A DNA stretch of 64,000 bases from Kiritimatiellia bacterium (GCA_040767085.1 JAXGPF010000015.1:26796-90795); one strand, 5' to 3'; positions 34,367 through 58,463 are shown, counted from the stretch's first letter. Program-made: numbers and translations. The notes: a model not told the origin generated them from the sequence alone.

Positions 34367-37300
34367 CTATTTGGGCAGCAAGTTAAGCGGATCACAGGCT
34401 GCTTTTTTGACAACGATAGAGTCATCCTGAAACTCCGTCGGGGCGCCGCCCTGCTCGACCTGGAGGCCGCTGACCCGCACGGCCGCGCCATCACCGGGCG
34501 TCATTAAGATTCTACGCGCGCCCAAATTCGATTTCCCGCCCGGCGGCAAATTAAAAGAATAATGGTACCGCTGCCATGTTTCCGTCAATTTAAAATTTTT
34601 CTTCGCGCTTTCAATCCCGACAGTCAAAGTGGCGCCCGGCTTTTCGCCGCGCGCATAAAGCGAGAAGGTCATTTCCACCGGCTTGTCGGAAGCCGGCGGA
34701 TAAAACACGCCAAAAGTTCCGCGCGTTTTGTATCCGCGCTCGGCAAATGGGCGCTTGAACATTCTTAAGGACGGATGGCCATTCCAAGTCACCTCCTTAT
34801 CAACAAACCACGACGAGCCCTTCTGCCCGACCGCAGGTTCGGTGCTCAGGCAGAAATACGGCCGGAAGAAATCGGGAATGCCGGGATTGAACTGCCGTTC
34901 AAAGCAGGGGTTGGGGACATGATTTTTTCCCAGCATCAACTGCCGCACAATGCCGGCCACATCCACGGAATTGGCAATTTCATCCTTCACCGGAGTCATT
35001 TCCAGCGCCACTTGCACCGGAACGGACGAACGGGACAGTTTCATCCGATAGGCCCGCGTGCCGTAAGGCTCAATCTTGTCCTTAAACGCTTCACCATCCA
35101 ACGCCAATATCCTTTGTGCCTTTGTGTCTTTGTGAGAGAATTCCGCATGTTTATCATCACAAAACATCCGCGCCGCGCGTTCCAGTCCGCCAACCTGGAA
35201 CTTCGTATCCACCGCATGCGGCATGATATTAACCGCCAGCAGCAGGTAATCGCCGTCCGGATACTGGAACACCGCCGCGTTGACCATTGGAAATTTCTGT
35301 TCATCGGGCTGAAAATTATCAGGTGTATATTTTATTTTTTGTGCTACGTCGCCATTGACCAGCGCTGGCGACATTTCCTTGATTTGGGCGCTGATCGTGC
35401 GCAGGGCATCCCAGGGATCCGGCCCGACCACGCAACTCAAGGCAAAATAAAGCAACCCCCGCGAACCGTAAATGATAGCCGTCCAAGCCTGGCAGAGCAT
35501 GCGGGATTTATTCATGCCGATGGGAGTGCGCGACGTATCCTGCTGGCTGGCGATGGGCACGAACCACATGATCTTGTTATCCTGCCGGCAACGCTCGCGC
35601 AATTGCCATGCGTAATAAGCCGTGCTCAACCCGGGCTCAATTCTGATCCCGGCATCCGGCCTGAACAATTTCGGATAGATATCATATCCCAGGATATCAC
35701 ACCAACGCGTCCAATCATCGCCGGGTGGAATATACGCTGAATACACCATGAGTTGCGGGCGATATGGATCCAAAGGCGTAATGGTGTTCCAATACCGTTC
35801 CGCACCGGCAATTCTTTCCTCGGGGTTGACCAGATTAGGTTCATCCACGTTGTAATAGGCGACAAAATTTTTGTAATCGCGCAAAATCCTGGTGTCGGCA
35901 ATAATCTCCGGCTCTGCCGCATCATACTCCTTTTGCTGGATGGCCAGTCGCTCAGCCAAAGGCAAATCACAGGGTGGCGGCGGCCACATCCCGGGTTTCC
36001 AGCCGATCGGATGCGGTTGGGGCGAGGTCCAGGTAATCACGTTTAATCCGTATTTTTCAGCCAGGTGCATGAAGGCAACCGTATTGGTGGCGCTTTTTGA
36101 CCTGATGATGGTATTCAGGCCGATATCCTCGGCCAGGAACCGGAATAATTCTTCATCATCCTCCTTGCTGCCATTGACGCCCAAACGGCGTTGGAGGGTA
36201 TGCCCGTATAAACCAACCGGGAAAAAAGGCTGTCCATCCTTCAATACAATGCCTTTAATAAAATCCGCCTTGGTTTCAAACCCCGGCCGCGAATCCAATC
36301 GCACTATGTTCACCGTTTGCTGGGCCAATTCATTTCCATCCATGAGAATGCTGATTTTGACCTCGTTAACCCCCTGCCCCAGTTTTGACAGAGGAATTGC
36401 CGGAGTGATCACCGGGCTCAAGCCATTCAATTCCACCATCATCGCGCCTGCCAGCTCCAGGCTCAACTTTGCCGTCCGCAGCATACTTTCCGGCAATCCC
36501 AATTCGACCCGGATATCAGCCGATTCTTCGGAAGTATAATAACTGCGGCCGGCGTAAACTCGTTTCAATACATTTAACGCCGAGGTATCGGCAATGGCAA
36601 ACGATGCCAGTCGATTGCCGTTCTGCGGATCTTCCAGCACAACGGTAATATTACGCTCCCGCCATGTCCCGACCGGCACCATTGGAAATAAATCCAAAAC
36701 GCCGCTCAATGCTACCGGCTGCGTGTAAGTTGTGACAGCGCCCTGCCCGAAATTTTCGATGATTTTTAATTGCGCCGCACCGGTTTTTGGCGTTGCGGTT
36801 GCCAAGGTCAAAGCCAGGCAATAAAAATTCGTACCGGCGTCCCGCCGGACTCCAGTGATAGCCGCTTTTGGGATTATCGGCGCGAATGGGACCTCCGGCT
36901 TGAATCCGCCAAGCCCGCGCAATTCAAAATAATTTCGAAAACTTTGAACGCTGCCCTTATGGCCCGGTTTCAAGACGTGATAAACGCGCTTTTCCTCCAG
37001 CACCGCCCCCATGTCATCCAGGCCGATTTCAACATAATTTCTTAAAATGTTTATCTGGGCGCTGCTCAAATCATCGCCATCCATGGAAATAAGGGGGATC
37101 GCCGCTTCCGCCGCCCAGCCATCAGCCTGCCGCGTGGTCACGGTGCGCCACAACGAATTCCAACCGGCATCGCGTCCGGATTCCGTACACAGCCTGTCCG
37201 CCCGGACATTGGCAAAGCTCAACATGAAATGGCAATAAGTTGTCGAATTGGTGGATGGCCGGATAAATAATTCCACGGATTCGTCGCGATTCACTTGCCC

Positions 37301-37609
37301 TTCGTTTTTCGCGGCTTTTTGGGTTACATGTTCCATCTGGGGATTCCGGCACCGCACCCCCAGATACAGCCAGGTGTTGTCGCGTAACAGTAAAATTTCA
37401 GTTTCCGGCGCCGGGATATCGCTGTTGATTTGATACAGGTTTGCTATTTTGGCGGCTGATCGCCAGGCCGGATCATCAAGTTGGCCGTCTAGCATGGGCG
37501 GCTGGCCGCAGGCGGGTATTTCAACCGGCGGCAAAGCCGCCGCCATTGTAACCAGTCCGCACCCGACCGCCGTGAACGCCGTCAAACCGCACCAAAGTTT
37601 GCCTCGCAT
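34367..37609 (-). CDS. Large secreted glycoside-hydrolase-like protein A (CBM9-like N-terminus, TIM barrel, CBM-like C-terminus)
   Basis: Signal peptide; LDGQLDDPAW...DESVELFI (CBM9/DOMON-like); DGQPFFPVG, NVDEP, DILGYDIYP; family not assignable. Confidence 0.7.
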   Translation of the reverse strand: MRGKLWCGLTAFTAVGCGLVTMAAALPPVEIPACGQPPMLDGQLDDPAWRSAAKIANLYQINSDIPAPETEILLLRDNTWLYLGVRCRNPQMEHVTQKAAKNEGQVNRDESVELFIRPSTNSTTYCHFMLSFANVRADRLCTESGRDAGWNSLWRTVTTRQADGWAAEAAIPLISMDGDDLSSAQINILRNYVEIGLDDMGAVLEEKRVYHVLKPGHKGSVQSFRNYFELRGLGGFKPEVPFAPIIPKAAITGVRRDAGTNFYCLALTLATATPKTGAAQLKIIENFGQGAVTTYTQPVALSGVLDLFPMVPVGTWRERNITVVLEDPQNGNRLASFAIADTSALNVLKRVYAGRSYYTSEESADIRVELGLPESMLRTAKLSLELAGAMMVELNGLSPVITPAIPLSKLGQGVNEVKISILMDGNELAQQTVNIVRLDSRPGFETKADFIKGIVLKDGQPFFPVGLYGHTLQRRLGVNGSKEDDEELFRFLAEDIGLNTIIRSKSATNTVAFMHLAEKYGLNVITWTSPQPHPIGWKPGMWPPPPCDLPLAERLAIQQKEYDAAEPEIIADTRILRDYKNFVAYYNVDEPNLVNPEERIAGAERYWNTITPLDPYRPQLMVYSAYIPPGDDWTRWCDILGYDIYPKLFRPDAGIRIEPGLSTAYYAWQLRERCRQDNKIMWFVPIASQQDTSRTPIGMNKSRMLCQAWTAIIYGSRGLLYFALSCVVGPDPWDALRTISAQIKEMSPALVNGDVAQKIKYTPDNFQPDEQKFPMVNAAVFQYPDGDYLLLAVNIMPHAVDTKFQVGGLERAARMFCDDKHAEFSHKDTKAQRILALDGEAFKDKIEPYGTRAYRMKLSRSSVPVQVALEMTPVKDEIANSVDVAGIVRQLMLGKNHVPNPCFERQFNPGIPDFFRPYFCLSTEPAVGQKGSSWFVDKEVTWNGHPSLRMFKRPFAERGYKTRGTFGVFYPPASDKPVEMTFSLYARGEKPGATLTVGIESAKKNFKLTETWQRYHYSFNLPPGGKSNLGARRILMTPGDGAAVRVSGLQVEQGGAPTEFQDDSIVVKKAACDPLNLLPK

Positions 37610-37639
37610 TAAAACCCCATCCCTGTTATTTCTGTTGAA

Positions 37640-39367
37640 TCACCGCACCTGGAACAACGTTCCGCTTAAAATCAATTCGTAACACCCCATGTCGGCCTGC
37701 CGGACAAAATAATCCCGCCGGGGACGTCCATCCAAATCCATGGCCGCTGCCATCCATGCAAAATTGGTGCCGGCATTGACGCAGGGCGAACCATGCGCCA
37801 GGCGGTAATCGCCGCCTGCCAGGCTCAAGCCGTAACCCGCTCCCGGCGCCGCAAACAACGGATCAACGGCAAGATTGCCCCGGACCCCCTGGGGCAATAC
37901 CGGACTGCAGGAAAAGTGGAACGCGTTGGTGCTGTCAGTGCCGGGCAGATACAAGTCCTGATCGCCAACCCCGGCGGAATTGGAATAGACAATGCAATTG
38001 AAAACGAGATTGCTGGCCACCGCCGCCAGGGCCAGTCCGCCGCCGCCGCCCAGGGTCTGATTGCCCGCGACCGTGCAGGACTCCACCGTGTTCGTTCCAT
38101 CCACGCCGATGTAAATGCCGCCGCCATGATATGTTGCCGTAGAAGATGTCGTCACATTGCCCACGATCAGGCAATTGCGGATTTGGGTTTGCGATTGCGG
38201 GGCGACGTATACTCCGCCGCCGGAACGCCAGGCGCTGTTGGAAACAATTTCACAATATTCCATGACCCCGTTAGTCCTGAAATATATCCCGCCGCCTTCA
38301 TTGTCAACAGCAAGATTACCGGCAATCCGCGAATGTGTGACGGTAATGGCGCCGACATTCCCTTGGTTATACCCGTGTAAAATCCCCCCGCCATACGTAC
38401 CTGCTTCGTTAAAGGTGAAAACGCAATTGCTGATCAACGCGCTCCCTTCCGCATAGGTAGTCAGCCCGCCGCACACCGTGCCTTTGTTGTGCGTCACCGT
38501 GCTGCCAATGAGTTCCAGTTCTGCGTCTTCCACGGCAATGCCGCCGACATAGGCATAGAAGGAATTATTGCTGATGATGCAATCCTGTAACAACGCGCGC
38601 TGTCCTGCAGACCCAACAATCGATATCCCCGCCCCGCGCTTTAACGCGCCGGCATGCCCATTCCCGGAAATCACACAGTTGGACAGGACGGCCAGGCTGC
38701 CGGACGAATTCCGAAACTGGATTCCGCCGCCTGGACCGGCGCTGGTGTTGTCGGCTACCGTGCTGTTCAATAACGCCGCGCCACCGGCAAAAAATACTCC
38801 GCCGCCGCCAATGGTGGCCAACATGACCTCATTGGAAACCACCCGGCAATTGTCGGCAATGGCATTGGCGGACGCCAGATACAACCCGCCGCCGCGATGT
38901 GAAGCCTTGCAGTAAAAAACATTGCAATTGGTCGCCAGCCCGGAATTAAGGTTTATTCCGCCGCCATTAATTCCACCGGTAGCGTTGGGAGCATATCCAT
39001 TGGTCAAGGTGAATCCGTCCAATACCGCCCCGGGGTCATTGAGATACACCAGGCGTGTGTCGTAAGCCGGATCGCGGGTAATCGTCACGCCGGCCGGCGG
39101 ATTCAGTCCGCGGACAAAGATCGCCTCGCCAATCGTGATTTGATTGGTTACAAAATAGAGGCCGTTGGAGACCAGCACCGTGTCGCCGGCGCCGGCGGCG
39201 TTAATGGCGCCCTGGATACTGTTGGTGGGATCCTCCCACTTGGACCCCGCGCCCGTCCCGTTGGTGGTCACAAACCAGGTGGCTTGGGCGGGCGCCAACA
39301 CCGACGGCAGCCACAATCCAACAGCAATCAGCGCCGGACTTAAACCGCGGACAAACATAGTTTTCAT
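37640..39367 (-). CDS. Secreted right-handed beta-helix protein A (choice-of-anchor-Q-like C-terminus)
   Basis: Signal peptide; GGG-x-N-C-x-I-x-x-N repeats; DYRL..GSPCVNAG..DLDGRPR..DMGCYE. Confidence 0.8.
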   Translation of the reverse strand: MKTMFVRGLSPALIAVGLWLPSVLAPAQATWFVTTNGTGAGSKWEDPTNSIQGAINAAGAGDTVLVSNGLYFVTNQITIGEAIFVRGLNPPAGVTITRDPAYDTRLVYLNDPGAVLDGFTLTNGYAPNATGGINGGGINLNSGLATNCNVFYCKASHRGGGLYLASANAIADNCRVVSNEVMLATIGGGGVFFAGGAALLNSTVADNTSAGPGGGIQFRNSSGSLAVLSNCVISGNGHAGALKRGAGISIVGSAGQRALLQDCIISNNSFYAYVGGIAVEDAELELIGSTVTHNKGTVCGGLTTYAEGSALISNCVFTFNEAGTYGGGILHGYNQGNVGAITVTHSRIAGNLAVDNEGGGIYFRTNGVMEYCEIVSNSAWRSGGGVYVAPQSQTQIRNCLIVGNVTTSSTATYHGGGIYIGVDGTNTVESCTVAGNQTLGGGGGLALAAVASNLVFNCIVYSNSAGVGDQDLYLPGTDSTNAFHFSCSPVLPQGVRGNLAVDPLFAAPGAGYGLSLAGGDYRLAHGSPCVNAGTNFAWMAAAMDLDGRPRRDYFVRQADMGCYELILSGTLFQVR

Positions 39368-39499
39368 GCCGCCCCTTTCCGTTAGGTTTGAATTTGAGTG
39401 TGCGGTGTTCAGGGTTCTGGCGTAACACCTGAAAACCTTGAACCTTGCAATATCCAAAAACATGAGCGTTAAATTTGCGCGATGGGTAAATCGCCAAAT

Positions 39500-40306
39500 T
39501 CAGCTCGGTAAATTTGACAATATTCCCCGCAGATGCGAACGCATGGCGTCGAACGCGCAATGCGAACTGCGCGCCTTGTATTTCAAGGTCACATGCTCGC
39601 GCGCGTACTGGCCGGCCTTATCGTTAAACGTCCCCCGGGAAGTCACCAACTGCCCCCAGTTGCCGAAACTCCAGCCGGTGTTGTCTTTGCGTTCGGAAAG
39701 ATTTTTATGCCATTCCTCCGGGAACAATGCCAGCCAGCGCGGATGATCGTTGAGCCAGGTGCCGGTGTAAAGCGTGTCATAGCCGTATTCCCTGGCGCTG
39801 CGCTCCATCAACTCCATGAAACAATCCGGCAAATGGCGCGGATCGTCATAAATGGAGCGGGGCGACAGCGCGTTGGCGATATGGAAGCAGCACCAGTTCG
39901 GCTGCAGGTTGGGCCGGGGCGGATCGTATTTCAGGCTGCGCACGTTCCACTCCGGCGGCAGGTAACCGGGCATGCCGACGCTTTTGGGGTAAAATTCTTC
40001 CGCGCGCGCCAGGGCCAAATCGCGGATTTCGGCGAACATCCGCTCCTCGAATTCATCCGGCGGCAGACCGCCCTGTTCATTCGCGCGGGCGACAATCGGC
40101 CGGCAATCCGGATTGTCCCACCTGGTCTGGTAATCCCGGTAATTCAAGACGTGAAAAAAAAGGGGCGTACGGTCGCGCACCAATTCGCCGACCGGGCTTT
40201 CGGGCATTTTATCCTTCAGCCGGCGCGCGAAATAAAACGACAGGCGCGCCATTTTTTCCACATATTCCCGATGTTCATCCAGTGTTTTAATAATTGGTTC
40301 GGACAT
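39500..40306 (-). CDS. Hypothetical protein (possible GNAT-like fold)
   Basis: 268 aa ORF; FHIAN...TGTWLND only weakly recalls GNAT-like C-terminal domains. Confidence 0.6.
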   Translation of the reverse strand: MSEPIIKTLDEHREYVEKMARLSFYFARRLKDKMPESPVGELVRDRTPLFFHVLNYRDYQTRWDNPDCRPIVARANEQGGLPPDEFEERMFAEIRDLALARAEEFYPKSVGMPGYLPPEWNVRSLKYDPPRPNLQPNWCCFHIANALSPRSIYDDPRHLPDCFMELMERSAREYGYDTLYTGTWLNDHPRWLALFPEEWHKNLSERKDNTGWSFGNWGQLVTSRGTFNDKAGQYAREHVTLKYKARSSHCAFDAMRSHLRGILSNLPS

Positions 40307-40454
40307 ATTGCTTCCCAGGCATTTAAAAAGCCTTGACACCTCTATGCCGCCGCATGGCGGTCCGCCATGTCGCAAAGGATGGTGAAAATTACTCAAAGTT
40401 AGTTGTATATTACTCCGAGTTGATATACAGTAAAGGTCATATTTGACCAAAGGC

Positions 40455-41312
40455 ATGACGGATTTGTTCATGCACGGATATTTCAACGACGTCCAATTCC
40501 TGAACGTGGCGCGCCGCCGGCAATGCGCGCTCAGTCTGGCGCCTTATCGGCACCCAGACCGGGCCTCGCTCGAATTGCTGCGCGCCGGCGGCATGTGTTA
40601 CGTAGTCAACGGGCGCGCATATGACCTGCGCGCGCCGGTGGTGTTCTGGAATGTCCCCGGCAAGACCTATGCCTACCGGGTTGCACCCGGCAGAAGCCGC
40701 GATCATTCCTGGGCGGACTTCGCGGGCGCGCGCGCCCGCCGGATCGGCTTGGCGCTGGACCGGCTCGAGCCGAAAAATTTTATACCGTTGGCCGATCCGG
40801 ATGAATTCGGCATGATTTTCGATGAAATGATCCGGGTGTACCTGTCGGATGACCCGACCGCCGCTTTTAAAATTGCCGTGCATCTTGAAACCTTGGTGGG
40901 GCTGGTATATGATACCTGCCGGAACCAAATTCTGTCGGAAACAGACCAGCCGGCCTGGCACCGGCTGTCGCTGGAAATCGCAGAGCACCCGTTCCGCCCC
41001 TGGGACTTCCACGAACACGCCCGCCAAGCCGGGGTATCCTACACCCATTTCCGCCGCCGGTTCCGCGCGGCCGTCGGCATGGCGCCGCACGATTATCTGC
41101 TTTATTGCCGCGCGCGCAAAGCGGCGCGGGAATTGCAAACCCGCGATGTTTCCATCAAGGCGCTGGCCTACGAGCACGGTTTTTCCGACCCGGCAATTTT
41201 ATCCCGGTTGATCAAATCCAAACTGGGCGTCATCCCATCGTCGCTAGGCCATTTACGCCAGCGCGGGGAAACCAACGGGAGGAGAAATAGCCTCTTGCGC
41301 GAAAACCAATAA
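40455..41312 (+). CDS. AraC family transcriptional regulator
   Basis: C-terminal AGVSYTHFRRRF...SIKALAYEHGFSDP double HTH; cupin-like N-terminus. Confidence 0.9.
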   Translation: MTDLFMHGYFNDVQFLNVARRRQCALSLAPYRHPDRASLELLRAGGMCYVVNGRAYDLRAPVVFWNVPGKTYAYRVAPGRSRDHSWADFAGARARRIGLALDRLEPKNFIPLADPDEFGMIFDEMIRVYLSDDPTAAFKIAVHLETLVGLVYDTCRNQILSETDQPAWHRLSLEIAEHPFRPWDFHEHARQAGVSYTHFRRRFRAAVGMAPHDYLLYCRARKAARELQTRDVSIKALAYEHGFSDPAILSRLIKSKLGVIPSSLGHLRQRGETNGRRNSLLRENQ

Positions 41313-41332
41313 AGGGGATGGGGGTTCATGTC

Positions 41333-42781
41333 TTACAACTCGTCCGGCTGGTATGCCATCCAAGGCTTGCCGATTTTGTCCGGTTTGGCCGGAGCGCGCT
41401 CGGGCTGGAAGCCGGCCAGCATGCCCAGGAATTTTTCCCGGATTTTTTCAAATGCCCCGGTTTCCAGGAAACTGCCGCCGCCGAATTTCGGCTCGTAACC
41501 GCCGCCGCCCGGACCGAACGCCTCCGGCGTGGGGATATAGCCGGCATGGCCGTTGGTCAATTCCGCCACCATGACGCAGGGGAATTTTTTTTTCGCCGCC
41601 GCCTTAACGTCCACCGCCATCTGCGCGAACACCTCGCCGGGCGATGTGAACAGGATCAGGTTCCCGATTTGCATGGCATTAAGCTCGCAATCGAAAATCG
41701 GCTGCTTGCGCATCCGGTTGACCAGCAGCACGGTATCGCGCGCGTAATACCCGATCCGCCACTTGTCCCGGCTTAAATCGTACTTTTCATTCAAATCCGC
41801 CAAAGCGCTCTGGTAACGCGCTTCCGATATGGCGCGATAAGTCAGCGGCAAGATTTCCTGCCGGAATTTCAGCTCGTTAAAACTTTCCGGATCAGGTGCG
41901 CGCAAGGCTTCCACCGCGCCGAACCCCACCCGCTCGCCCAGCACCAGGGCGCGCCGCTCGGTGCGCGGTTCGGGCGCCGGATCAAGATTGTCAATCTGGG
42001 TCACATCGCCGCAGCAGCCGTTTAAAAACACCACGCTCATGCGCGGATGGATGTTGCGCTTGACGGTTTCGCGCATGTAATACGGCCAGTCGGCGGAATA
42101 TCTGTCCTCGGCCGACACGGTGCCATGGCAGGCGAAATTAACCACTGCGCCGAGCATCTCGCCGGCGGCATTAACCGCCCCCAGCGCGGCCAGTTCCTGG
42201 TCCGCCGGCCCGGCATAATCCACAATGTCCGGATTGCCCTTGCCGCCATGCGTCACGGTCAATCCGTTTTTCATCTTGTATCGGCGGTTATAGGCCACAT
42301 TTTCCACCAGGGCGCAGCCGGTGACCAGCCGGACCGGCTGCCGGCGCAGCCAGGCGTTCCAGACCGCGTCCACCAAGCGCTTGCGCAACAGCAGCTTGTA
42401 ATCCGGATCAACCCGCCCGATTTCACGCGCCACCCGCGCCCGGACTGCGGGCTGGATATCCGTCATCTCCATCACTTCCGATTCCGGCATCATCATCCAA
42501 TCGCTTGACACCGGATTGGCATGGGTATGGGATGCGCCGGCGATCAGGCAATCCAGGGGCATGCGCTTTTTCAGTTCGGCCTCGGCGAAATCGATCAAGG
42601 CGCGATCCAGGATGATCATATCCGCGCCGACCAGGGCCACGGTGCGGCCGGCCGACTCGAACACACCGGCGGAAAAGGAAAACGGCGTGTTGACTCCCTG
42701 TTTGAGGCCGTAATCGAATGCCGTGGCGGAGCGTGTATCGTAAAACGGCGTGATATCCGACTCGTAAAACCCGGCTTGCAT
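41333..42781 (-). CDS. Neutral/alkaline ceramidase-like amidohydrolase 1
   Basis: ASHTH, NFACHG, FLNGCCGDV, PGEVF, ELTNGHAGYIPT. Confidence 0.8.
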   Translation of the reverse strand: MQAGFYESDITPFYDTRSATAFDYGLKQGVNTPFSFSAGVFESAGRTVALVGADMIILDRALIDFAEAELKKRMPLDCLIAGASHTHANPVSSDWMMMPESEVMEMTDIQPAVRARVAREIGRVDPDYKLLLRKRLVDAVWNAWLRRQPVRLVTGCALVENVAYNRRYKMKNGLTVTHGGKGNPDIVDYAGPADQELAALGAVNAAGEMLGAVVNFACHGTVSAEDRYSADWPYYMRETVKRNIHPRMSVVFLNGCCGDVTQIDNLDPAPEPRTERRALVLGERVGFGAVEALRAPDPESFNELKFRQEILPLTYRAISEARYQSALADLNEKYDLSRDKWRIGYYARDTVLLVNRMRKQPIFDCELNAMQIGNLILFTSPGEVFAQMAVDVKAAAKKKFPCVMVAELTNGHAGYIPTPEAFGPGGGGYEPKFGGGSFLETGAFEKIREKFLGMLAGFQPERAPAKPDKIGKPWMAYQPDEL

Positions 42782-42805
42782 GGTCTTCCTTTCCAAATAT
42801 TTTAT

Positions 42806-42899
42806 CCGCAAAAGAGCACAAGGATCACAAGGAAACATTGGATGTGGCCGCAGGCGGCCTTGTTCACTTTTTCTTTGTGTTCTTTGCGCTCTTTCGCGG
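42806..42899. repeat. Intergenic imperfect inverted repeat built from 9-bp units
   Basis: CCGCAAAAGAGCACAAGGATCACAAGGA / TCTTTGTGTTCTTTGCGCTCTTTCGCGG, with an inner GGCCGCAGGCGGCC hairpin. Confidence 0.7.
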
Positions 42900-44415: not shown

Positions 44416-44440
44416 GTTATTTTCTTTGTAAAGACAAACA

Positions 44441-46216: not shown

Positions 46217-46420
46217 ATTTTCCCTCCTATTCACACATTATGCCAACAAAACATTTATACAGAAAAAACTAATGTAAGAGAAGATCGTTTCCTGGCTTCG
46301 ATACTCTGCGGTTCATTATTCGTCAATCTGCGGTTCAATATTGCATGGCGCCTCTCAATGCGTTCAGTGCGCAGCGTGTAACCGTTTCGAGAGGCTTAAG
46401 GCCGGCGCCGCTCCCACATA

Positions 46421-50583: not shown

Positions 50584-52344
50584 TTACCGAAGATTAATCA
50601 ATATACCGCACGGAACATATTCATAACATCCCATGTCCGTCCGGCGAAAGAATCGGTTAATCCGGGGGCGGCCATCCAGATCCACGGCCTCGGCCATCCA
50701 GGATTGGTTCGTGCCGGCATTGGCACAGGGCGAACCGCCCGTCAGCCGGAAGTCGCCGGCGGCAAAATCCGCAAACCCGGGCGCATTGGTGATGTTGCCG
50801 TTCCCGGAGTTGGTCAGCGCCGGGCTGCAGGAGTAAAATACTGGCGCGATATATGACGGGTCGCCCGGCATATCCGGATAATTCAAGCTGGCTGAATTCG
50901 AGGCCACCACGCAATTAAAAACCACCATATTATTCGATATATTCATCCCACCGTAATTATTGGAAACGGAATTGCCGGCAATGGTGCAGGATTCCACCCG
51001 GGCATCGAATGGATTCGGCCCGGATTTTACGCCCGTTTCGCCCGTATAAAACAAGCCGCCGCCGCTTCCATTGGTGGCGGTGATTCGATTATCGGCGATC
51101 AAGCAGTTTTGCACGACCACGCTGGCGCTGCCGGTGCAAACCAGCAGCCCACCGCCGCTGCTCCAATTATAGGCAAGGCTGTTGCTGCTGATCACGCAAT
51201 TGTGGAAGGACGCCGTGCCATGCGTGTATATGAATGCGCCGCCGCCGAACCGGCAACGATCGCCGCCATTTTCAATAATTTTGGCATTCACCACCGCGAG
51301 TGTTCCGGAAGAAGTTTCCGCGAGCGTATATCCATCGCATAGTCCCGCCCCTATAACGGTTGTTCCGGCAGCCGCCGCTTGGTTGCCCTTGACAACGCAA
51401 TTGCTGATCATGGCGCCGCCAGACCGGGATGTCAGATACGAATAAATCCCGGCGCCGGCTGTTTTGGCTTTATTCCCGATAATCAGGCTGTCTCGGATTA
51501 TAGGATAGCCCTCTCTATATATGCCAATCCCGCCACCGCCGAATTCGGAAATATTATTGCTGATAATCGAATCGGTTATCAGCATACCCGGGCCAAGAAC
51601 ATATATCCCGCCTCCCACGCTGCCGCCACTATTGGAAGCATAGTTGGCAGCGATGGTGCAGTTGGAAATCACTCCATTGGTGGATTTGGTGTAAATTCCG
51701 CCGCCATTCAGCGGGCAGGCGTTACTGCTGACAACACTATCCAGCAGGCTGGCGCCGCCGTAATTGCCGTAAATATCGCCGAATATCATCCCGCCGCCTG
51801 CCACACTGGCATAATTATTCGAAACCCAGCAGTTGCGCATCACCGCATTGGAATTGAACAGCGCCACGCCGCCGCCGCGGAACCCCAGGTTTTCTCTGAT
51901 AATGCAGTTGGTCGCCAACCCGGCTTCCACCAGGATGCCCCCGCCACAGCCGTATTGATGAACGAAAAGATTTTGCGGATAGCCGTTTTTCAGGGTAAAT
52001 CCGTCAAAAACCGCGCCGGCGCTGCTCACCCGCACGCAACGGGTGGAATAATTCACATCCGGATACATGGTGGTGATTACCGCGCCGGTGGGCGCGTGCA
52101 TGCCGCGGACCGTTATATCCTTGGTGATGTAAATGTTGACCATCTGGGTGTAAACGCCCGGATTGACCAGCACGGTGTCGCCCGCCACGGCCTTGTCCAC
52201 GCCGTTGCTGATCGTCAGATACGGATTGCCGGCCGATCCGTTGCCGTCCGTATCGCTGCCCGTCGTCGCCACGTAAATCGTGGTTTGGCCGAATGCGCAT
52301 AATACCGGCAAACAAAGCAGCCAGACTGAATGACATAATTTCAT
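50584..52344 (-). CDS. Secreted beta-helix protein C
   Basis: Close paralog of B. Confidence 0.82.
   Translation of the reverse strand: MKLCHSVWLLCLPVLCAFGQTTIYVATTGSDTDGNGSAGNPYLTISNGVDKAVAGDTVLVNPGVYTQMVNIYITKDITVRGMHAPTGAVITTMYPDVNYSTRCVRVSSAGAVFDGFTLKNGYPQNLFVHQYGCGGGILVEAGLATNCIIRENLGFRGGGVALFNSNAVMRNCWVSNNYASVAGGGMIFGDIYGNYGGASLLDSVVSSNACPLNGGGIYTKSTNGVISNCTIAANYASNSGGSVGGGIYVLGPGMLITDSIISNNISEFGGGGIGIYREGYPIIRDSLIIGNKAKTAGAGIYSYLTSRSGGAMISNCVVKGNQAAAAGTTVIGAGLCDGYTLAETSSGTLAVVNAKIIENGGDRCRFGGGAFIYTHGTASFHNCVISSNSLAYNWSSGGGLLVCTGSASVVVQNCLIADNRITATNGSGGGLFYTGETGVKSGPNPFDARVESCTIAGNSVSNNYGGMNISNNMVVFNCVVASNSASLNYPDMPGDPSYIAPVFYSCSPALTNSGNGNITNAPGFADFAAGDFRLTGGSPCANAGTNQSWMAEAVDLDGRPRINRFFRRTDMGCYEYVPCGILINLR
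50620..51783. repeat. ~1.16-kb direct repeat, copy 2
   Basis: Matches 44477-45640. Confidence 0.9.
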
Positions 52345-52402
52345 TGCGCACCTTCTCTTTTGGGACATGCATACTGGAAAATCTCAGATAAATTATTATT
52401 CA

Positions 52403-55400
52403 TTATTCAGGCAAAACCCGCAATGAAAAATCATCCATTAGCAAAATATTTTTCTTTTCGCTGGACTTCAACCCCAGGACAACAACTTGAGCATAAGCAG
52501 TTCCCGGCCACCATTGTTTCGGGCCGATCGTCCCTTGAAATTCGGTCCACTCGCCCGGTATTGTCACGTTTACCGCGCCGGGCAGGAATATCCCGCCATT
52601 GCCGGCGCGGTTCTCCGTCACCGGCGTGCCGGCCGGCCGGTTCAACCCGCATGGCTTGCTCAATACAACCGTCCAACCATCGTCTTCCCGCCGGACCTCG
52701 TCAATGCCGAGCGGCGACACATCCGGCGTATATTCATTCTCGCTCGCGTCAAAGGCCATGGCAAATGACCGGCTGGGTTTCCAGTTGGCGGCGTTTTTCA
52801 CCCGCAAGATGCGGTCGTCGGACCGGCAGGGCGCGGCCAGTTCCGTCCGGGTGCCTGGCAGGGAAAACACGTTCCAGTGCCGGATCAGCCGCTTTTGGGC
52901 ATCCGCCAGCATCACTCCGAAAATAATCCCCTTGATTGATTCCGGCCCGGCTTTGAACCACCCGCTTAACGCATGAGCCCGGTTGGTGTCAACCGCGACC
53001 CAATCGGAGGACACCCCTTGCGACTGCCCGCGCCAGCAGAAAGCATATTCGCCCGTATGTGCTTGGCCCGGGCGCACTCCGAATTCGCCGAAACGCAGAT
53101 TCTCCAGGCCTGCCCAGCCGTCCGCGGCGCCGGACTCCGCACCGGGATTGAGCAGAAGGTTGTCCGGATCAGCCGTCACTACTTTTTTTTTACGCAAAAT
53201 GGAATCATCCTGGAATGCCGTCGGCTGCCCGCCCTGCTCCACCTGCAAACCTGAAATCCAGATCACATCGTCATCGGATGGGATAATCAACATGGACCGC
53301 GCGCCCAGGTTCGCGCCCGAGCCTGGCGGCAAATCGAAGGTGATGTGATGGCGCTGCCAATCCGGAGTCAAGCCCTTAACCGTGAAAGGCTGGTCCTCGC
53401 CGAAGCGAATCCACAAGTTGGCCTTGGGACTCTGGCTGCGGGCATGAAACGAAAAGGTGATTGGCATCGGTTTATCCGATACCGGCGGATAGAATGAAGC
53501 ATACATCCCGCGTGTTTTGCGTCCGCCCAGATCATACTTGCGTTTGAGCATCCGCAAAGACGGACGGCCATTCCAAAGCGCTTCATTGTCCACGAACCAA
53601 TCGCTCTTGCCCGGCTGGCCCCAGAACGGATCCACGCTCAGGCAGAAATAAGGCCTGTAGAAATCAGGCACGGCCGGATTGGTTTGCTGCTCGAAGCAGG
53701 GGTTGGGCATGTGGTTTTTGCTCAGCATCAACTGGCGCACAATCCCGGGGATGTCAACTGATGGCGCGCGCTCTTCCTCTACCGGCGTCATTTCCACTGC
53801 CACTTTCACCGGCGCGGGCGAACCGGACAGTTTCATCCTGAAGGCGCGTGTGCCGTAAGGCTCAATCTTGTCGGCAAACGCTTCCCCATCCAACTTTAAT
53901 ATCCTTTGCCCCTCTGCCCCTTTGCCCCTTTGCCCCTCTGCCCCTTTGTCCCCCTGCCCCTCGCTGGCAAACATCCGCGCCGCGCGTTCCAGTCCGCCAA
54001 CCTGGAACTTCGTATCCACGGCGTGCGGCATGATATTGGCCGCCAGCAGCAGGTAATCGCCATCCGGATACTGGAACACCGCCGCATTGACCATGGGGAA
54101 TTTGCGTTCCCGCGGGGCAAAATCATCCGGTGTGTAGTGAATGCTTTGCGGGACATCGCCATTGACCAGCGCGGGGGTCATCTCCTTGACCTGAGTGCTG
54201 ATGGCGCGCAGGGCATCCCAGGCATCCGGTCCGACCACGCAACTCAAGGCGAAATAGATCAAGCCGCGCGATCCGTAAATCATCGCGGTGTACGCCTGAC
54301 ACAACATATGCGCCTTGCTCAGACCGATGGGCGACCGGCCGGGATCCAGGATATTGGACAGGGGCACAAACCACATGATCTTGTTGTCCTGCCGGCACCG
54401 CTCGCGCAGTTCCCATGCGTAAAACGCCGTGCTCAACCCCGGCTCGCTGTAAAAACCGCTGACATGCGCGCGCGGATAGACATCATAACCAAGAATGTCG
54501 CCCCAGCGCGTCCAGTTGTCGCCGTGGGGAATATGCTTGGAATATAGCAGGAATAACGGGCGGTAAGCGTCCAGCGCTTTCACCGTCTGCCAATACCACT
54601 CGGCAATGGCAATCCGTTCATCGGGATTGATCAAGTTTGGCTCGTCGAAATTCCAGTATCCGAAAAAATTTTTATAATCGCGTAGAATCTTGATATCGGC
54701 GTCCCGGTAAGACGCCCCCTGGTCATAACTTCCCCTTTGAACTTCAAGGCGCTTGGCCAGCGGCATGTCCGGCGGCGCCTGCGGATCAATCAGATTTACC
54801 GGATATCCCAGCTTGTTGCAGAAGGTCGAGTAATTCCAGGTGACGACCATCAAGCCATATTTTTCCGCCAGGTCCATAAAAGCGGCCGCATTGGTGGCGC
54901 CGCCGCTGCGCACCACGAGATTCAGCCCCACATCATCCGCCAGGAATTGGAAGACCTCTTCGTCATCTTCCAGGCTCCCGCGGGCGCCCAGCCGGAATTG
55001 CAAGCTATGCCCGCAAATCCCCACCGGGAAAAAAGGTTCCTGATCCTTTAACAAGACGCCCCGCGTGAAATCGGCTTTGGCCTCATACCCCGGGCGCGGC
55101 GCCAACCGGATCAGATTAATCGGCCGGGCGGCCAATTCCATTCCATCCAGGAGCACCCGCACCATGACTGCATTATCTCCGAATTTCAGGGCCGACAAGG
55201 GCACTGCCGGCGTCATAACCGGCGTCAACCCCTTAATTTCAGCAACCATCTTGCCGTCCGCTTCCAGCACCAGCGCGGCCCGCGCCAGCATATTCGAAGG
55301 CAATCCCAGTTCCACGCGGATTCCGGCGGATTCTTCGCTGGTGTAATAACTGCGCGCGGCAAATGCTTTTTTAATGATTTTCAACGCCGATGTGTCTTCA

Positions 55401-56434
55401 ATCTGTCTGGATGCCAGTAAATCGCCAGTATCCGGATTGCACAAGACGACCTGGACCAGGCGTTCCTGCAAATTGCCGGCCGGAATCTGCAAATCAAGCT
55501 CCAGCGCCCCCCGCACTTCCAGCAATTGCGCATGGCGCTCGACCGCGCCGGCGCCGAAATCCTCGACAACCTTCAATTGCGCCGCGCCCTCCACCGGCGT
55601 GGCGGTGGCCAGGGTCACACGCAAATCATAGAAATTACTGCCGCCATCCTGCCGGACCCCGGCAATGTCCGCCGCCGCAATCCGCGGAGCGAAGGGCACC
55701 TCCGGTTGTAATCCGGCCAAGCCGGCCACCGGGCAAAAATTGGCCGGATGATGGAAGCCGCCTTGGCTGCCGGATTTCAGCATGCTCAACACCTTGCGTT
55801 CATTTTGTTTGGCGCCGTAATCATCCAGTTCAACTTGGACCATGGTGCGTCCGAGGCTGATTGTCAGCCCACTCAAATCGTCCTGCCCCAGGCAGAACCA
55901 GGGGATGGCGATTTCCGCGCTCCAGCCGTCCTCCCCCCGCCGGGTGGCGGTCCGCCAGACGGGATTCCAGCCGATATCGCGCAGGCCTGCCTGGTTGCAG
56001 CGTTGTTCCTTGCCGACATTGGCAAAATTCAACAGAAAATGATAATAGTCGGCGGCCGGATCGGCGGACGGCCGGATCAGAATTTCCAGCGCCGCATCAT
56101 GATGCACCGCGCCGTCATGCTGGAATGCGAGCTGCGGCACATGTTCCATGTTGGGATTGGCGCATTGCGCGCCGATGTAAAGCCAGGCATTGTCGCGCAT
56201 CAGCCATAAGGTGGTTTCCGGCGCCGGCTCAGCGCTGCCGATCTGATAAAGATGTTCGATTTTAGCGGCGGATGCCCAGGCCGGATCCTCCAGCGCGCCG
56301 TCCAGCAGCGGCGGCTTGCCGCATACCGGGATATTCAAACTTGAAACATCCGCGCCGGCATCGTATGCGATACCGGCGCTCGCCAGCATAGCCAATAACC
56401 AGCCCCATTGCGCCAGTCTATTCATCGTTATCAA
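52403..56434 (-). CDS. Large secreted glycoside-hydrolase-like protein C
   Basis: Paralog of A and B; NFDEP, DILGYDVYP. Confidence 0.72.
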   Translation of the reverse strand: MITMNRLAQWGWLLAMLASAGIAYDAGADVSSLNIPVCGKPPLLDGALEDPAWASAAKIEHLYQIGSAEPAPETTLWLMRDNAWLYIGAQCANPNMEHVPQLAFQHDGAVHHDAALEILIRPSADPAADYYHFLLNFANVGKEQRCNQAGLRDIGWNPVWRTATRRGEDGWSAEIAIPWFCLGQDDLSGLTISLGRTMVQVELDDYGAKQNERKVLSMLKSGSQGGFHHPANFCPVAGLAGLQPEVPFAPRIAAADIAGVRQDGGSNFYDLRVTLATATPVEGAAQLKVVEDFGAGAVERHAQLLEVRGALELDLQIPAGNLQERLVQVVLCNPDTGDLLASRQIEDTSALKIIKKAFAARSYYTSEESAGIRVELGLPSNMLARAALVLEADGKMVAEIKGLTPVMTPAVPLSALKFGDNAVMVRVLLDGMELAARPINLIRLAPRPGYEAKADFTRGVLLKDQEPFFPVGICGHSLQFRLGARGSLEDDEEVFQFLADDVGLNLVVRSGGATNAAAFMDLAEKYGLMVVTWNYSTFCNKLGYPVNLIDPQAPPDMPLAKRLEVQRGSYDQGASYRDADIKILRDYKNFFGYWNFDEPNLINPDERIAIAEWYWQTVKALDAYRPLFLLYSKHIPHGDNWTRWGDILGYDVYPRAHVSGFYSEPGLSTAFYAWELRERCRQDNKIMWFVPLSNILDPGRSPIGLSKAHMLCQAYTAMIYGSRGLIYFALSCVVGPDAWDALRAISTQVKEMTPALVNGDVPQSIHYTPDDFAPRERKFPMVNAAVFQYPDGDYLLLAANIMPHAVDTKFQVGGLERAARMFASEGQGDKGAEGQRGKGAEGQRILKLDGEAFADKIEPYGTRAFRMKLSGSPAPVKVAVEMTPVEEERAPSVDIPGIVRQLMLSKNHMPNPCFEQQTNPAVPDFYRPYFCLSVDPFWGQPGKSDWFVDNEALWNGRPSLRMLKRKYDLGGRKTRGMYASFYPPVSDKPMPITFSFHARSQSPKANLWIRFGEDQPFTVKGLTPDWQRHHITFDLPPGSGANLGARSMLIIPSDDDVIWISGLQVEQGGQPTAFQDDSILRKKKVVTADPDNLLLNPGAESGAADGWAGLENLRFGEFGVRPGQAHTGEYAFCWRGQSQGVSSDWVAVDTNRAHALSGWFKAGPESIKGIIFGVMLADAQKRLIRHWNVFSLPGTRTELAAPCRSDDRILRVKNAANWKPSRSFAMAFDASENEYTPDVSPLGIDEVRREDDGWTVVLSKPCGLNRPAGTPVTENRAGNGGIFLPGAVNVTIPGEWTEFQGTIGPKQWWPGTAYAQVVVLGLKSSEKKNILLMDDFSLRVLPE

Positions 56435-58463
56435 CTCCTTTGATCAATTTCTCCACTGCCGCCAATTTATCTCCCAATACCGCGCCTTTTTGACGGGCCT
56501 GCTCCTGCATGTATTCCGACAGATACTCCCGGTTGGACGCCAAGCGGGTCTGCAGATACAGGTTGAACATATCCTGCAAGCGATCAAACGCCTGGCGCGC
56601 GGCGCCGGCCTGGTACTGGTCCGACAATGATGCAATAAAATCATGGCCGGCCTGTTCCAGCCGGCAATACGCCAGCAGCAACTGCGATTGCGCGATCAGG
56701 TCAGGCGCATTCAGTTTTTCGGCCAGTTTCAAGGCCCGCCCGGCCTGAAGCGCGCCGGCTGGCAATTCGTCCGGATTGACCAGGGAATCATCCCATTTTT
56801 TATCCCTGGCCATTTGCGCCAGGTTGTTAAACCAGGACAAGCCGGAGCTTGGCCAGCATTTTGGCAGGCGCACTGCCTGCGGCATATCCATGGCGGCAAT
56901 CCACGCGACAAATCCGGCCGGATCGGCATAGCCCTGCCGGCAGGCCCAGGCTTCGGCAAATTCGCCGGCAGTGCGCCCTGACGCATTCCAGGAATATTCC
57001 GCCAACGCGCAAAGCTGATACCGGTATTGACGGTAAAACTTATCCGGATTGCCGCCGCCGGCGCCGGGGGTAAACTGCCATGCGCCGATATACTTGCCGT
57101 CAACGATCTGCTGCATGCGGGCGCGAACGTGTTCGGAACGATAAGCGGCTGTCAGCGACACCACGTTCATCCGCGAGATGCGTTTGCCTGATCCGGCATA
57201 GTCGGCCAGCAGCCGTCCGTCCGGGCCGTCGCACCCCATGGAGGGGCGCATCGCGACATCAGGGGGCAGGATGTCCATGATGGTTTTGATTTCCTCGTCC
57301 GGGTAACGCTCCGTCAATGGATGCCTGGCGCTGGCCAACCCGCCGCGGCCGAAAAACACGCTGAGTTTCAAATGCGGGTATGACTTTTTAGCGGATTCCC
57401 ATGCGGCTATGGCCGCCTTGACTTCCGCCACGTATTGTCCGGTTTTGACGCAATTTTCGCATTCGCAATGCGCGGCGGGATATTCACTCATCCAGATCAT
57501 GACTTCGGATGCCCGTTGCGCCGCAAGATCAGCCATGACCACAGTCAGAATTTTCACCAAATCCGGATTGGACGCGCATGGCACCCGCTGTTGCCCGCCG
57601 GCTTCGCGGGAGGCCGGATTCCATGCCGCATCCCCCTTGCCCGGCAGCTCCGGATAAAATTTTAAATACCCCGGCTTGTTCTTTTCCCAATAATCGTAAT
57701 GCGAGGTGCCGCGCACCAATTCCGCGCCGTATTCGCGGGCATGGTCGAAAGGGGATATCCATTCCGCGCCGGCTTGCCGCGCCAGGATATCCGGCGGATC
57801 GGGATGGACGCCGGCTTCATCAACGGAAAATCTCACGCTCAAAAAAAACCGGTTCATCTTCAGGGATGCCAGCCATGGAATTTGCTTTGCCGGCATATGC
57901 CAGAATCCGCGCTCTTCCAAGTCCGGCCAGTCCACGATGCAGGCCACGGGAATTTCAGCCTGCGCTGGAGTCAGATGCCGTTCCAGCCACTGGGCAAGGG
58001 TGCGCGTGCCGTAATACAGCCCGCGTTCATTCACCGCCGCCACAACCAGCCGGTCCGCGCCAACCGGCTGAATCACATATGCTTGATCGGAGTTCGGAAC
58101 ATCCTTCAGCCGGGCGCCGGCGGGAACCTCAATTCCATCCAGTCGGCCCTGTTCATCCATTAATCCGATCAGAATTTCATAATTCTTGGCGGCCGGCTCT
58201 ATCCCGGCCTTCTCCCGGAACAAGGCAACAACATTTGAAACCGCAATTTGTTCCAACCCGGCCGCGCCGGGCCGGCCCCGGATGCCGACCTCAGCGGGCT
58301 TTATCTTTCTTATTTCAGCAATGGAAATTTCATGCGGCAAGGGCATCAGTTCCCGCCGCCAGGCCGCTGCACCGGCCTGGTCCAGCTGCACCAACTCGCC
58401 GGCCGCCCCAACCGCCATCGATAGCGCTGCCACCGCCAAGGCCATCACTGTTGATTGATTCAT
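56418..58463 (-). CDS. Secreted protein with GH20 domain-2 (hexosaminidase-like N-terminus) and an unassigned catalytic domain
   Basis: LMPLPHEI, DQAYVI, GLYYGTRTLAQ, IVDWPDLEERG; CECENC. Confidence 0.7.
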   Translation of the reverse strand: MNQSTVMALAVAALSMAVGAAGELVQLDQAGAAAWRRELMPLPHEISIAEIRKIKPAEVGIRGRPGAAGLEQIAVSNVVALFREKAGIEPAAKNYEILIGLMDEQGRLDGIEVPAGARLKDVPNSDQAYVIQPVGADRLVVAAVNERGLYYGTRTLAQWLERHLTPAQAEIPVACIVDWPDLEERGFWHMPAKQIPWLASLKMNRFFLSVRFSVDEAGVHPDPPDILARQAGAEWISPFDHAREYGAELVRGTSHYDYWEKNKPGYLKFYPELPGKGDAAWNPASREAGGQQRVPCASNPDLVKILTVVMADLAAQRASEVMIWMSEYPAAHCECENCVKTGQYVAEVKAAIAAWESAKKSYPHLKLSVFFGRGGLASARHPLTERYPDEEIKTIMDILPPDVAMRPSMGCDGPDGRLLADYAGSGKRISRMNVVSLTAAYRSEHVRARMQQIVDGKYIGAWQFTPGAGGGNPDKFYRQYRYQLCALAEYSWNASGRTAGEFAEAWACRQGYADPAGFVAWIAAMDMPQAVRLPKCWPSSGLSWFNNLAQMARDKKWDDSLVNPDELPAGALQAGRALKLAEKLNAPDLIAQSQLLLAYCRLEQAGHDFIASLSDQYQAGAARQAFDRLQDMFNLYLQTRLASNREYLSEYMQEQARQKGAVLGDKLAAVEKLIKGVDNDE

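Follow-up and report, generated by a model that had tools for sequence, protein, structure and literature searches.

A candidate glycoside hydrolase family with a non-canonical catalytic centre and recurrent beta-helix neighbours in a Kiritimatiellia bacterium

Glycoside hydrolases (GH) of family GH42 (PF02449), such as the Thermus A4 beta-galactosidase 1kwk and the Bifidobacterium proteins 4ucf and 5xb7, combine a barrel with a beta-sandwich. Their acid/base Glu follows an Asn after strand beta4, a DxYP motif is found at beta6, and the Glu of the 'LLME' stretch in beta7 is the residue that we take to be their nucleophile. GH20-type hexosaminidases work by a neighbouring-group mechanism and have a D-E pair after beta4. 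At the level of gene organisation, the polysaccharide utilisation loci (PULs) of Bacteroidota, characterised by SusC/SusD, are co-directional strings of genes for secreted glycan-active proteins, with a dedicated regulator and many paralogous islands. In the present work, a gene cluster of a Kiritimatiellia bacterium (GCA_040767085.1) was analysed in a stretch of 64,000 nucleotides (nt) of contig JAXGPF010000015.1, referred to below as the window. In this cluster, three large GH-like proteins (GH_A, GH_B and GH_C) are encoded beside right-handed beta-helix proteins (hel_A, hel_B and hel_C).

The best reading of our results is that the large proteins form a candidate new, lineage-restricted GH family in which a clan GH-A fold is associated with a non-canonical catalytic centre and with a recurrent beta-helix partner. 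The locus is best explained as one of many glycan-utilisation islands built on this heavily expanded GH-like family, which is unclassified relative to Pfam, NCBIfam and the PDB. Co-directional strings of putatively secreted glycan-active proteins, a dedicated regulator and many paralogous islands are found here as in the PULs; in contrast to these, the window is devoid of TonB, SusC and SusD, and the recurrent partner is a beta-helix protein. Indeed, among the 41 open reading frames (ORFs) of the window scanned with Pfam, neither a TonB/SusC-type receptor nor a SusD family was found. An earlier note, made from the sequence of the window, had already stated the absence of TonB/SusC-type receptors and had called the system non-Bacteroidota in style; our scan and the restriction of the relatives to the Planctomycetota-Verrucomicrobiota-Chlamydiota (PVC) group bear this out.

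The large proteins and the described GH families

The large proteins had been described in the earlier note as GH-like, outside any named family, and as sharing DEP, DILGYDxYP and WFVP motifs. The motifs DEPNL, DILGYD(I/V)YP and MWFVP were present in GH_A, GH_B and GH_C, and the central ~430 residues of the three proteins, which contain the catalytic domain, gave no match in Pfam (E ≤ 0.01), in NCBIfam or among PDB sequences. When 30 remote relatives were analysed with Pfam, only CBM9_1, Laminin_G_3, CBM_4_9 and similar lectin-type accessory domains were detected, none of them over the barrel. PDB sequence searches with GH_B, and likewise with hel_A, the ceramidase-like protein cer1 and the GH20b-domain protein of the cluster, gave nothing significant.

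Each large protein starts with a signal-like N-terminus, followed by a module resembling carbohydrate-binding module (CBM) family 9, two beta-sandwich linkers, a (beta/alpha)8 barrel with its C-terminal beta-sandwich and one or two CBM4-like modules. In GH_C, the CBM4-like domain is followed by an extra C-terminal CBM-like domain, and GH_A is devoid of this last domain. The signal peptides proposed previously were in agreement with our inspection by eye, which found hydrophobic signal-like N-termini in all six large and helix proteins. Membership of CBM9 was found for GH_B (PF06452, E 1.1e-6, 29.1 bits for a cut-off of 23.4), GH_A and GH_C having no Pfam match of their own. Upon comparison of the family profile with the PDB, the N-terminal module matched the CBM9 of T. 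maritima Xyn10A (1i82, 1.5e-9) and the module after the barrel was CBM4-2-like (3jxs, 1.8e-8). A phage origin, raised by the NCBIfam entry 'GTA_spike_fiber' on the C-terminal module, was rejected: the scores were 19.6-24.5 bits for a threshold of 36, and the jelly-roll likeness is better explained by CBM4-2.

The catalytic domain of GH_A (residues 435-862) was modelled with AlphaFold2 from an 83-row alignment (pLDDT 94.8, pTM 0.93). The model consists of a barrel and then a beta-sandwich, and the pair D155-E156 (domain numbering) stands directly after beta4 (148-155), as expected for a clan GH-A barrel. With this model, Foldseek returned only distant clan GH-A chains (GH30, GH5, GH140, GH51, GH39 and GH157), with TM values of 0.44-0.62 and 8-13% identity. 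In an exhaustive VIA search, matches to GH164, GH42, GH35, GH140, GH5, GH2 and GH158 spanned Z scores of 18-27. The best was GH164 6t5o (Z 27.5, rmsd 3.2, 349 aligned residues, 15% identity), the GH42 structures were at Z 24.3-26.7 (5xb7 26.7, 4ucf 26.5, 1kwk 24.9), and GH35 (23.6), GH140 (22.9) and GH5 (~22) were found further down. When the family profile was compared with PDB sequences, GH158 (8.5e-8) and GH2 (2.4e-5) were matched over beta1-beta6, with the D-E pair on their N-E.

The family was also aligned by hhalign with a profile of 23 GH42 sequences taken from genomes of the same class, which gave a probability of 96.3% and an E of 1.7e-9 over 384 columns; this profile was used in place of a single GH42 sequence, for which the alignment was uninformative (probability 0.5%). 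In the ESM Atlas, the large proteins matched unnamed clusters only, plus one with PF02449 in 10% of its members. As judged by profile alignment, the barrel is remotely homologous to GH42, and its predicted fold comes nearest to the structures of GH164 and GH42.

With GH42, the large proteins have in common the barrel and beta-sandwich, the beta4 acid/base Glu and the beta6 DxYP motif. However, PF02449 is unmatched in the three window proteins, the N-E of GH42 is D-E here, its nucleophile Glu falls on a Pro, and the identity is 12-13%. Furthermore, the large proteins show neither a match to the GH42M trimerisation domain nor a CxCxxC cluster after the acid/base, and possess signal-like N-termini and CBM9- and CBM4-like modules. 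The GH164 beta-mannosidase Bs164 (6t5o) is the nearest structural neighbour of the GH_A model, but beyond the low identity the profile-to-sequence match is limited to beta1-beta4, with an E of 0.37.

Paralogs were defined as ORFs of at least 150 amino acids (aa) found by phmmer at E ≤ 1e-5. By this definition the genome (4.08 Mb, 95% complete) contains 36 GH-like barrel ORFs, 78 beta-helix ORFs, 20 ceramidase-like ORFs and 9 GH20b-domain ORFs, and the GH-like genes sit in large co-directional islands. The most divergent GH-like paralog (C23:275207-275569) is the sole one that touches PF02449 (22.9 bits). In wider searches, 59 clusters out of 5.8 billion were retrieved by a word-indexed search, their sources being in every case Kiritimatiellia, Lentisphaerae or unnamed, and 366 representatives at E ≤ 1e-3 (89 at E ≤ 1e-30) were found among 1.84 billion proteins. 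In a phylum sample of 301 genomes, only three matched at E ≤ 1e-10, namely the window's genome, a genome of the same genus and one of another family. Full-text search found no literature description of the GH-like family or of its pairing with helix genes. A Kiritimatiellia synteny preprint (10.64898/2026.10.06.756941) reports 6,811 hypothetical genes in CAZyme clusters; the passages of its main text do not mention these proteins, and its supplements might list them.

The catalytic centre and the beta-helix partner

Conservation was followed in an alignment of 83 sequences, with the residue numbers of GH_A. E590 and Y645 are invariant (83/83), and D589 and D643 are conserved in 81 and 80 sequences, respectively. 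In the hhalign register, the D-E pair falls on the GH42 N-E and D643-x-Y645-P on D-x-Y-P, and the beta7 'LLME' Glu falls on P685, a position that is Pro in 72 of the 83 sequences and acidic in none. The GH42 signature of an N-E acid/base pair with a beta7 Glu nucleophile is not found in the family, which has D-E and Pro at these places. At residue 688, three positions beyond P685, Glu is present in 40 of the 83 sequences, Asn in 19, Gly in eight and Ser in six, and the register on GH42 was unchanged when only the 40 Glu-type sequences were used. Residue 688 is Ser in GH_A and Asn in both GH_B and GH_C, and this Asn is conserved within the close subfamily.

All 36 paralogs of the genome keep the D-E pair. 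In their tree, Glu is widespread at 688, with at least four losses, the window copies belonging to an 11-member Glu-less clade with 99% SH-aLRT support. On this distribution, Glu at residue 688 appears to be ancestral and repeatedly lost. Since the nucleophile position is Pro and residue 688 is Ser, Asn and Asn, the window copies are predicted to have neither the canonical nucleophile nor the only nearby candidate substitute, with an acid/base and a pocket that seem strongly constrained. The proposal of a new GH family in the earlier note is thus sustained as far as Pfam, NCBIfam and PDB families are concerned, with a caveat that it had missed, the absence of the canonical nucleophile.

Like GH20-type hexosaminidases, the large proteins have an Asp-Glu pair where beta4 ends, and they are predicted to lack an enzyme nucleophile at beta7; a GH20b-domain gene heads the window operon. 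In contrast, their barrel has no GH20 sequence or profile match (the catalytic profile PF00728 was unmatched in the large proteins and in the GH20b-domain protein in Pfam and NCBIfam scans), and its fold neighbours belong to clan GH-A. The likeness to GH20 is a possible way of working, not membership.

The AlphaFold2 model of hel_A (pLDDT 89.3) was a long right-handed beta-helix. Its VIA neighbours were AlgE4 (Z 25.3), then phage tailspike depolymerases, PL6 lyases, NosD and autotransporter passengers, and these neighbours do not separate enzyme from adhesin. The C-terminal module matched the NCBIfam choice-of-anchor-Q entry (choice_anch_Q, NF041518), with scores of 21-22.8 bits (E 8e-5 to 2.9e-4) that fell slightly short of the 25-bit cut-off. 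In 48 aligned helix sequences, the positions conserved at 70% or more were limited to ladders of Cys, Asn and Gly, R105 and the C-terminal module, where the conserved polar residues are R522, S527, W538, D544, R550, D559, Y563 and E564. No conserved acidic/basic cluster was seen on the helix body in these 48 sequences, nor were catalytic and Ca-binding residues of the PL6/AlgE4 type, with the limit that repeat alignments can blur registers. Because the body conserves only the Cys/Asn/Gly ladders, the helix proteins read as a non-catalytic scaffold or binder, subject to the same blurring of registers.

The helix family is broad, with 536 matches among 8000 scored candidates. Its relatives are named right-handed parallel beta-helix, choice-of-anchor Q and outer membrane repeat proteins, and carry PF13229, PF02415 and PF05048. 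The right-handed beta-helix is shared with Pmp-like and choice-of-anchor Q proteins and with AlgE4, PL6 and tailspike enzymes, and the hel proteins show GGG-x-x...N repeats. They differ from AlgE4 and PL6 by having no conserved catalytic-type acidic/basic residues on the helix body, and from the autotransporter passengers Vag8 and pertactin, which are fold neighbours of hel_A, by having no autotransporter barrel. It was also observed that hel_A, hel_B, hel_C and most of the 48 relatives end about 10 residues past a conserved 'DMGxYE', with a near-invariant Gly and a terminal Arg. This short tail could be a sorting or anchoring signal.

As claimed in the earlier note, each of the three large proteins of the window is encoded beside a beta-helix gene, and this linkage proved real and recurrent in the genome, in loci of other PVC bacteria and in one gene fusion. 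In the genome, a helix gene lies within 500 bp of 16 of the 36 GH-like paralogs and within 3 kb of 25. Random placement (1000 trials) put a helix gene within 500 bp of 3.5 paralogs on average and of 10 at most, so that the observed number is 4-5 times the expectation. The neighbourhood survey that the earlier note had called for covered 45 loci of about ten other PVC metagenome-assembled genomes (MAGs; Kiritimatiellia, Victivallales, Lentisphaerae and 'uncultured Verrucomicrobiota'), with 46 GH-like ORFs of at least 800 aa counted and fragments dropped. In these, a helix gene was directly downstream of 12 of the 34 GH-like genes whose downstream sequence was long enough to be scored, and upstream of 2 of 38.

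The fusion protein, P0044 (1552 aa, L035:143-4801, + strand), is made of a GH-like protein and a full helix protein (helix match E 2e-82) and is the only one among 193 family proteins; its gene is followed by a separate helix gene (L035:4889-6631, + strand). A second locus of the window's genome, on contig C23, also contains a helix, a GH-like, a ceramidase-like gene and a paralog of o328, the hypothetical gene of the cluster. A link between the Glu-less state and a helix neighbour was considered and rejected: a helix gene lay within 500 bp for eight of 17 Glu-type and eight of 18 Glu-less copies, counted by hand with the ambiguous copy C24:45873 left out. A complex prediction with the GH_A catalytic domain and residues 29-575 of hel_A scored 0.00 for a mark of 0.32; run without controls, it speaks neither for nor against binding.

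Weighing of the proposed mechanism

The reading that we favour, with a probability of roughly 0.4, is that the large proteins are extracellular glycan enzymes, that the window subclade, devoid of a nucleophile, works through neighbouring-group participation, and that the helix proteins are non-catalytic partners. The large proteins would act outside the cytoplasm on a complex glycan. In the window subclade, there would be no enzyme nucleophile and catalysis would most likely be substrate-assisted, on a 2-acetamido or otherwise participating sugar, with E590 as acid/base and D589 orienting the participating group in the manner of GH20-type enzymes. The helix protein would be a non-catalytic polymer-binding or scaffolding partner, the imported products would be processed in the cytoplasm by the ceramidase-like amidohydrolases, and the divergent AraC regulator would control at least the hel_A/GH_A sub-operon.

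Several points weigh against this reading. Pfam and NCBIfam scans gave no sequence match of the GH20, GH84 or GH18 type, and the D-E pair is family-wide, Glu-containing members included, so that it is not a specific adaptation of the Glu-less clade. Should the Glu at residue 688 be the true nucleophile, its repeated loss would also fit repeated decay to non-catalytic binders. The mechanism is deduced from sequence, and the placing of residue 688 or P685 at the nucleophile position is alignment-based; moreover, CAZy and dbCAN lie outside the basis on which the family is called unclassified. As for the partner, the gene order is mixed in the window's genome (eight helix genes upstream and eight downstream), which argues against fixed one-to-one partners. 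When the similarities of GH-like proteins and of their neighbouring helix proteins were compared for 17 adjacent pairs, the Mantel r was 0.079, a value reached by 1067 of 5000 permutations, and the two families do not co-diversify. Given 78 helix genes in a genome of 4.08 Mb, a shared enrichment in glycan islands could also account for part of the adjacency.

The loss of the ancestral Glu 688 on at least four occasions, in lineages that persisted and duplicated, leads to another explanation, in which the window copies and the other Glu-less clades are dead GH derivatives that capture glycans like the surface binders of Bacteroidota PULs, the Glu-type paralogs doing the cutting. Two or three CBM-like modules are kept in all copies and no SusD-type binder is found in the window, as this explanation would expect. 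Nevertheless we regard it as rather unlikely: at ~30% overall identity, the Glu-less lineages keep E590 (83/83), D589 (81/83), D643 and Y645 (near-)invariant, a pocket that a pure binder would not obviously need, and within the close subfamily residue 688 is a conserved Asn. Alternatively, the large proteins may be ordinary double-displacement glycosidases of a new clan GH-A family, whose nucleophile was mis-assigned and is a carboxylate of a loop, a neighbouring domain or another subunit. Remote profile alignments can slip by a few residues in loops, the assignment is sequence-based, and in some GH42-like folds neighbouring subunits complete the active site. However, D589, E590, D614 and D643 are the only acidic residues conserved in the barrel of the 83 sequences, D643 falls on the non-nucleophile Asp of the GH42 DxYP, and D614 stands just before beta5, at the barrel bottom in the model, which makes a mis-assignment improbable. 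A bolder form of the favoured reading, which we hold to be doubtful, is that this GH42-derived clan GH-A family switched wholesale from Koshland two-carboxylate to neighbouring-group catalysis and is paired with a polymer-presenting helix partner. The Asn before the acid/base would have become Asp and the nucleophile Glu would have become Pro, family-wide, and the two proteins would constitute a two-component PVC module in which a dedicated non-catalytic helix presents the polymer, according to a PUL logic without SusC/SusD. If true, hexosaminidase-type or other substrate-assisted catalysis would for the first time be found in a family with the clan GH-A fold.

The adjacency itself may be devoid of specific function, two abundant secreted families being brought together in the same glycan islands, and this explanation is compatible with the others. 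The high numbers of helix (78) and GH-like (36) paralogs, the absence of a mirror-tree signal and the mixed gene order are consistent with it, as is the low identity (47%) of the helix protein at the orthologous position in a related genome, where the GH-like protein reaches 81%. It was nonetheless judged a minority possibility, about on a par with that of dead binders, since the adjacency is 4-5 times the random expectation, the other PVC MAGs prefer the order GH then helix (12 downstream and two upstream) and one full-length natural fusion exists.

The locus and its genomic context

Our ORF calls gave the same ten genes and AraC gene, in the same order, as the earlier note, and the features are collected in the table below. 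The AraC gene is divergent from the string formed by the hypothetical gene, hel_A and GH_A, and convergent with cer2. The proposed AraC control is plausible for this divergent sub-operon and conjectural for the upstream 17-kb string. Hypothetical o328 had no match in Pfam or NCBIfam.

Table. Features of the cluster; coordinates are those of the whole 64,000-nt window, and features are on the minus strand unless marked +.
Feature	Position	Strand	Remarks
GH20b-domain protein	56418-58502	-	694 aa from TTG; ATG at 58463, the end coordinate in the earlier note
GH_C	52403-56434	-	1343 aa; DEPNL, DILGYDVYP, MWFVPLSN
hel_C	50584-52368	-	594 aa; signal-like N-terminus, right-handed beta-helix, C-terminal choice-of-anchor-Q-like module
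hel_C C-terminal tail	~50584-50615	-	
GH_B	46548-50576	-	1342 aa; domain architecture as GH_C; Pfam CBM9_1 match at residues 47-182
hel_B	44441-46234	-	beta-helix; 597 aa from GTG; likely ATG start 46216
hel_B C-terminal tail	~44441-44470	-	
cer1	42937-44583	-	distant neutral-ceramidase-like amidohydrolase; likely start M57 (~44415)
cer2	41333-42838	-	second ceramidase-like paralog; likely start at 'MQAGFYESDITP'
AraC-family regulator	40443-41312	+	Pfam HTH_18 1.2e-16, HTH_AraC 1.7e-10
hypothetical o328	39500-40486	-	true start probably internal
hel_A	37640-39463	-	607 aa; likely start M33 at 39367; 575 aa modelled
hel_A C-terminal tail	~37640-37670	-	
GH_A	34367-37609	-	1080 aa; short form; DEPNL, DILGYDIYP, MWFVPIAS
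GH_A catalytic domain	35024-36307	-	residues ~435-862

When the window paralogs were compared by BLASTP (E-values all far below chance), GH_B and GH_C were 61.5% identical over 1331 aa, and GH_A was 58.1% and 58.2% identical to GH_B and GH_C, respectively. The helix proteins hel_B and hel_C were 91.5% identical, hel_A and hel_B 37.8% (hel_A being ~38% identical to either), and cer1 and cer2 40%. At the nucleotide level, hel_B and hel_C shared 94.5% identity over 1733 nt, with ~1.1 kb identical at 100% (~44535-45634 in hel_B, ~50680-51780 in hel_C), whereas GH_B and GH_C shared 69%. This difference points to a recent duplication of the helix gene, or to gene conversion, between old GH paralogs; a collapse in the assembly of the MAG is the alternative.

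A syntenic contig of a related MAG (L015, L011) carries, in this order, genes for an integrase (79% identity), a GH20b-domain protein (79%), a GH-like protein (81% to GH_C), a helix protein (only 47% to hel_C), cer1 (89%), cer2 (88%), AraC (82%), the hypothetical protein (85%), a helix protein (78% to hel_A), a GH-like protein (74% to GH_A) and a peptidase C1 (80%). No ortholog of GH_B is present at this position in the relative. Since the GH_C-type pair stands alone there, with a helix protein of 47% identity, it was concluded that in the window GH_B and a helix gene were added and the helix gene beside GH_C was replaced.

The earlier note had presented the locus as a cassette of two genes amplified three-fold. 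This view did not hold: GH_B and GH_C are old paralogs of the 36-member family and only hel_B and hel_C were recently homogenised; furthermore, the relative has only the GH_C-type pair at this place, and the similarity matrices of GH-like and helix proteins are uncorrelated. A strain-specific mobile island was rejected as well. The GC content falls from ~0.63 to 0.55 in the cluster, which has an integrase gene at its flank. In the relative, however, the flanking integrase, peptidase and AraC genes are retained at 79-82%, so that the cluster is not a recent insertion. No tRNA was found in the window.

The deacylation of products by ceramidase-like enzymes, also proposed in the earlier note, has to be qualified, since the likeness to PF04734 (Ceramidase_alk) is distant. 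The scores of cer1 and cer2 (19.2 and 15.1 bits) are below the cut-off of 32.1, the comparison of cer1 with the PDB neutral ceramidase 2zws gave an E of 0.7, and for cer2 26 of 30 ESM Atlas matches fell in a set whose clusters carry PF04734 in 16-20% of their members. By their sequences, cer1 and cer2 would be distant relatives of neutral/alkaline ceramidases at most. Since inspection of the translations revealed no signal-like N-terminus, any deacylation by these proteins would be cytoplasmic. For the glycolipid substrate that had been put forward along with glycans, no direct support was found.

Among 60 unassigned neighbours in 13 sister islands of the genome, Pfam identified five BNR_2 sialidase-like proteins, a GlcNAc 2-epimerase, a DHDPS/NanA-like lyase, a GDSL esterase, amidohydrolases, a creatininase-family protein, GH127, GH42 and GH29 members, regulators of the GntR/LacI type and of the AraC type, and transposases. 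These neighbours point to complex glycans, of host type or microbial, with a high content of amino and nonulosonic sugars, although the substrate is not fixed thereby. The islands are distributed over contigs C22, C25, C28, C3, C23, C26 and C6 (L056-L068), where many Pfam-less proteins of 400-1350 aa are also encoded.

The GH20b-domain protein matched PF02838 (E 5.2e-8, 34.1 bits for a cut-off of 26.1) and, among PDB sequences, nothing better than E 0.18. After its N-terminal GH20 domain-2 fold comes an unassigned domain that contains 'SE...CxCxxC'; the sequence 'WMSEYPAAHCECENC' found there resembles the 'NE....CxCxxC' of the GH42 consensus, and this domain may be another unassigned GH42-like barrel. 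Three of the nine GH20b-domain paralogs of the genome abut GH-like genes.

Other features were observed around the cluster. Beside GH_A, positions 32157-34340 (+ strand) encode a 727-aa protein with a papain-type Peptidase_C1 domain, a 'Lectin_like' domain (E 2.5e-50) and FG-GAP repeats. The opposite flank, at the contig end (58837-63735), contains genes for a tyrosine integrase, a 387-aa HTH_17/MerR-like protein and a DnaB-N/AAA_25 helicase-like protein with a C-terminal HTH. Housekeeping genes (PlsX, FabH, FabD, T2SS E/F, ProRS) occupy the left 31 kb of the window. In this part, a gene for a LarC-type nickel insertion protein (1758-3775, - strand, PF01969, E 1.9e-129) adjoins an AIR-carboxylase/LarB-like gene, and this neighbourhood suggests nickel-pincer cofactor synthesis. 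Positions 6001-10000 and 14001-16000 have a high GC content of 0.66-0.69 and a strong positive AT skew of 0.25-0.29, and coincide with Pfam-less minus-strand ORFs (6334-7575, 7296-8018 and 14037-16679, the last of 880 aa).

If the favoured reading holds, the large proteins would represent a candidate for a new CAZy family, nearly confined to a few PVC lineages, with ~366 representative clusters among 1.84 billion proteins and 36 copies in one 4-Mb genome. As its catalytic centre departs from the clan GH-A rule, the family would provide a test case for a change of glycosidase mechanism on a fixed fold, and it would be a possible source of amino-sugar or sialo-glycan activities missed by current annotation. 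Should the Glu-less copies be dead binders, they would represent a clear example of repeated enzyme-to-lectin conversion. The beta-helix partner, finally, would offer a handle on the way in which Kiritimatiellia capture glycans without Sus-type machinery.

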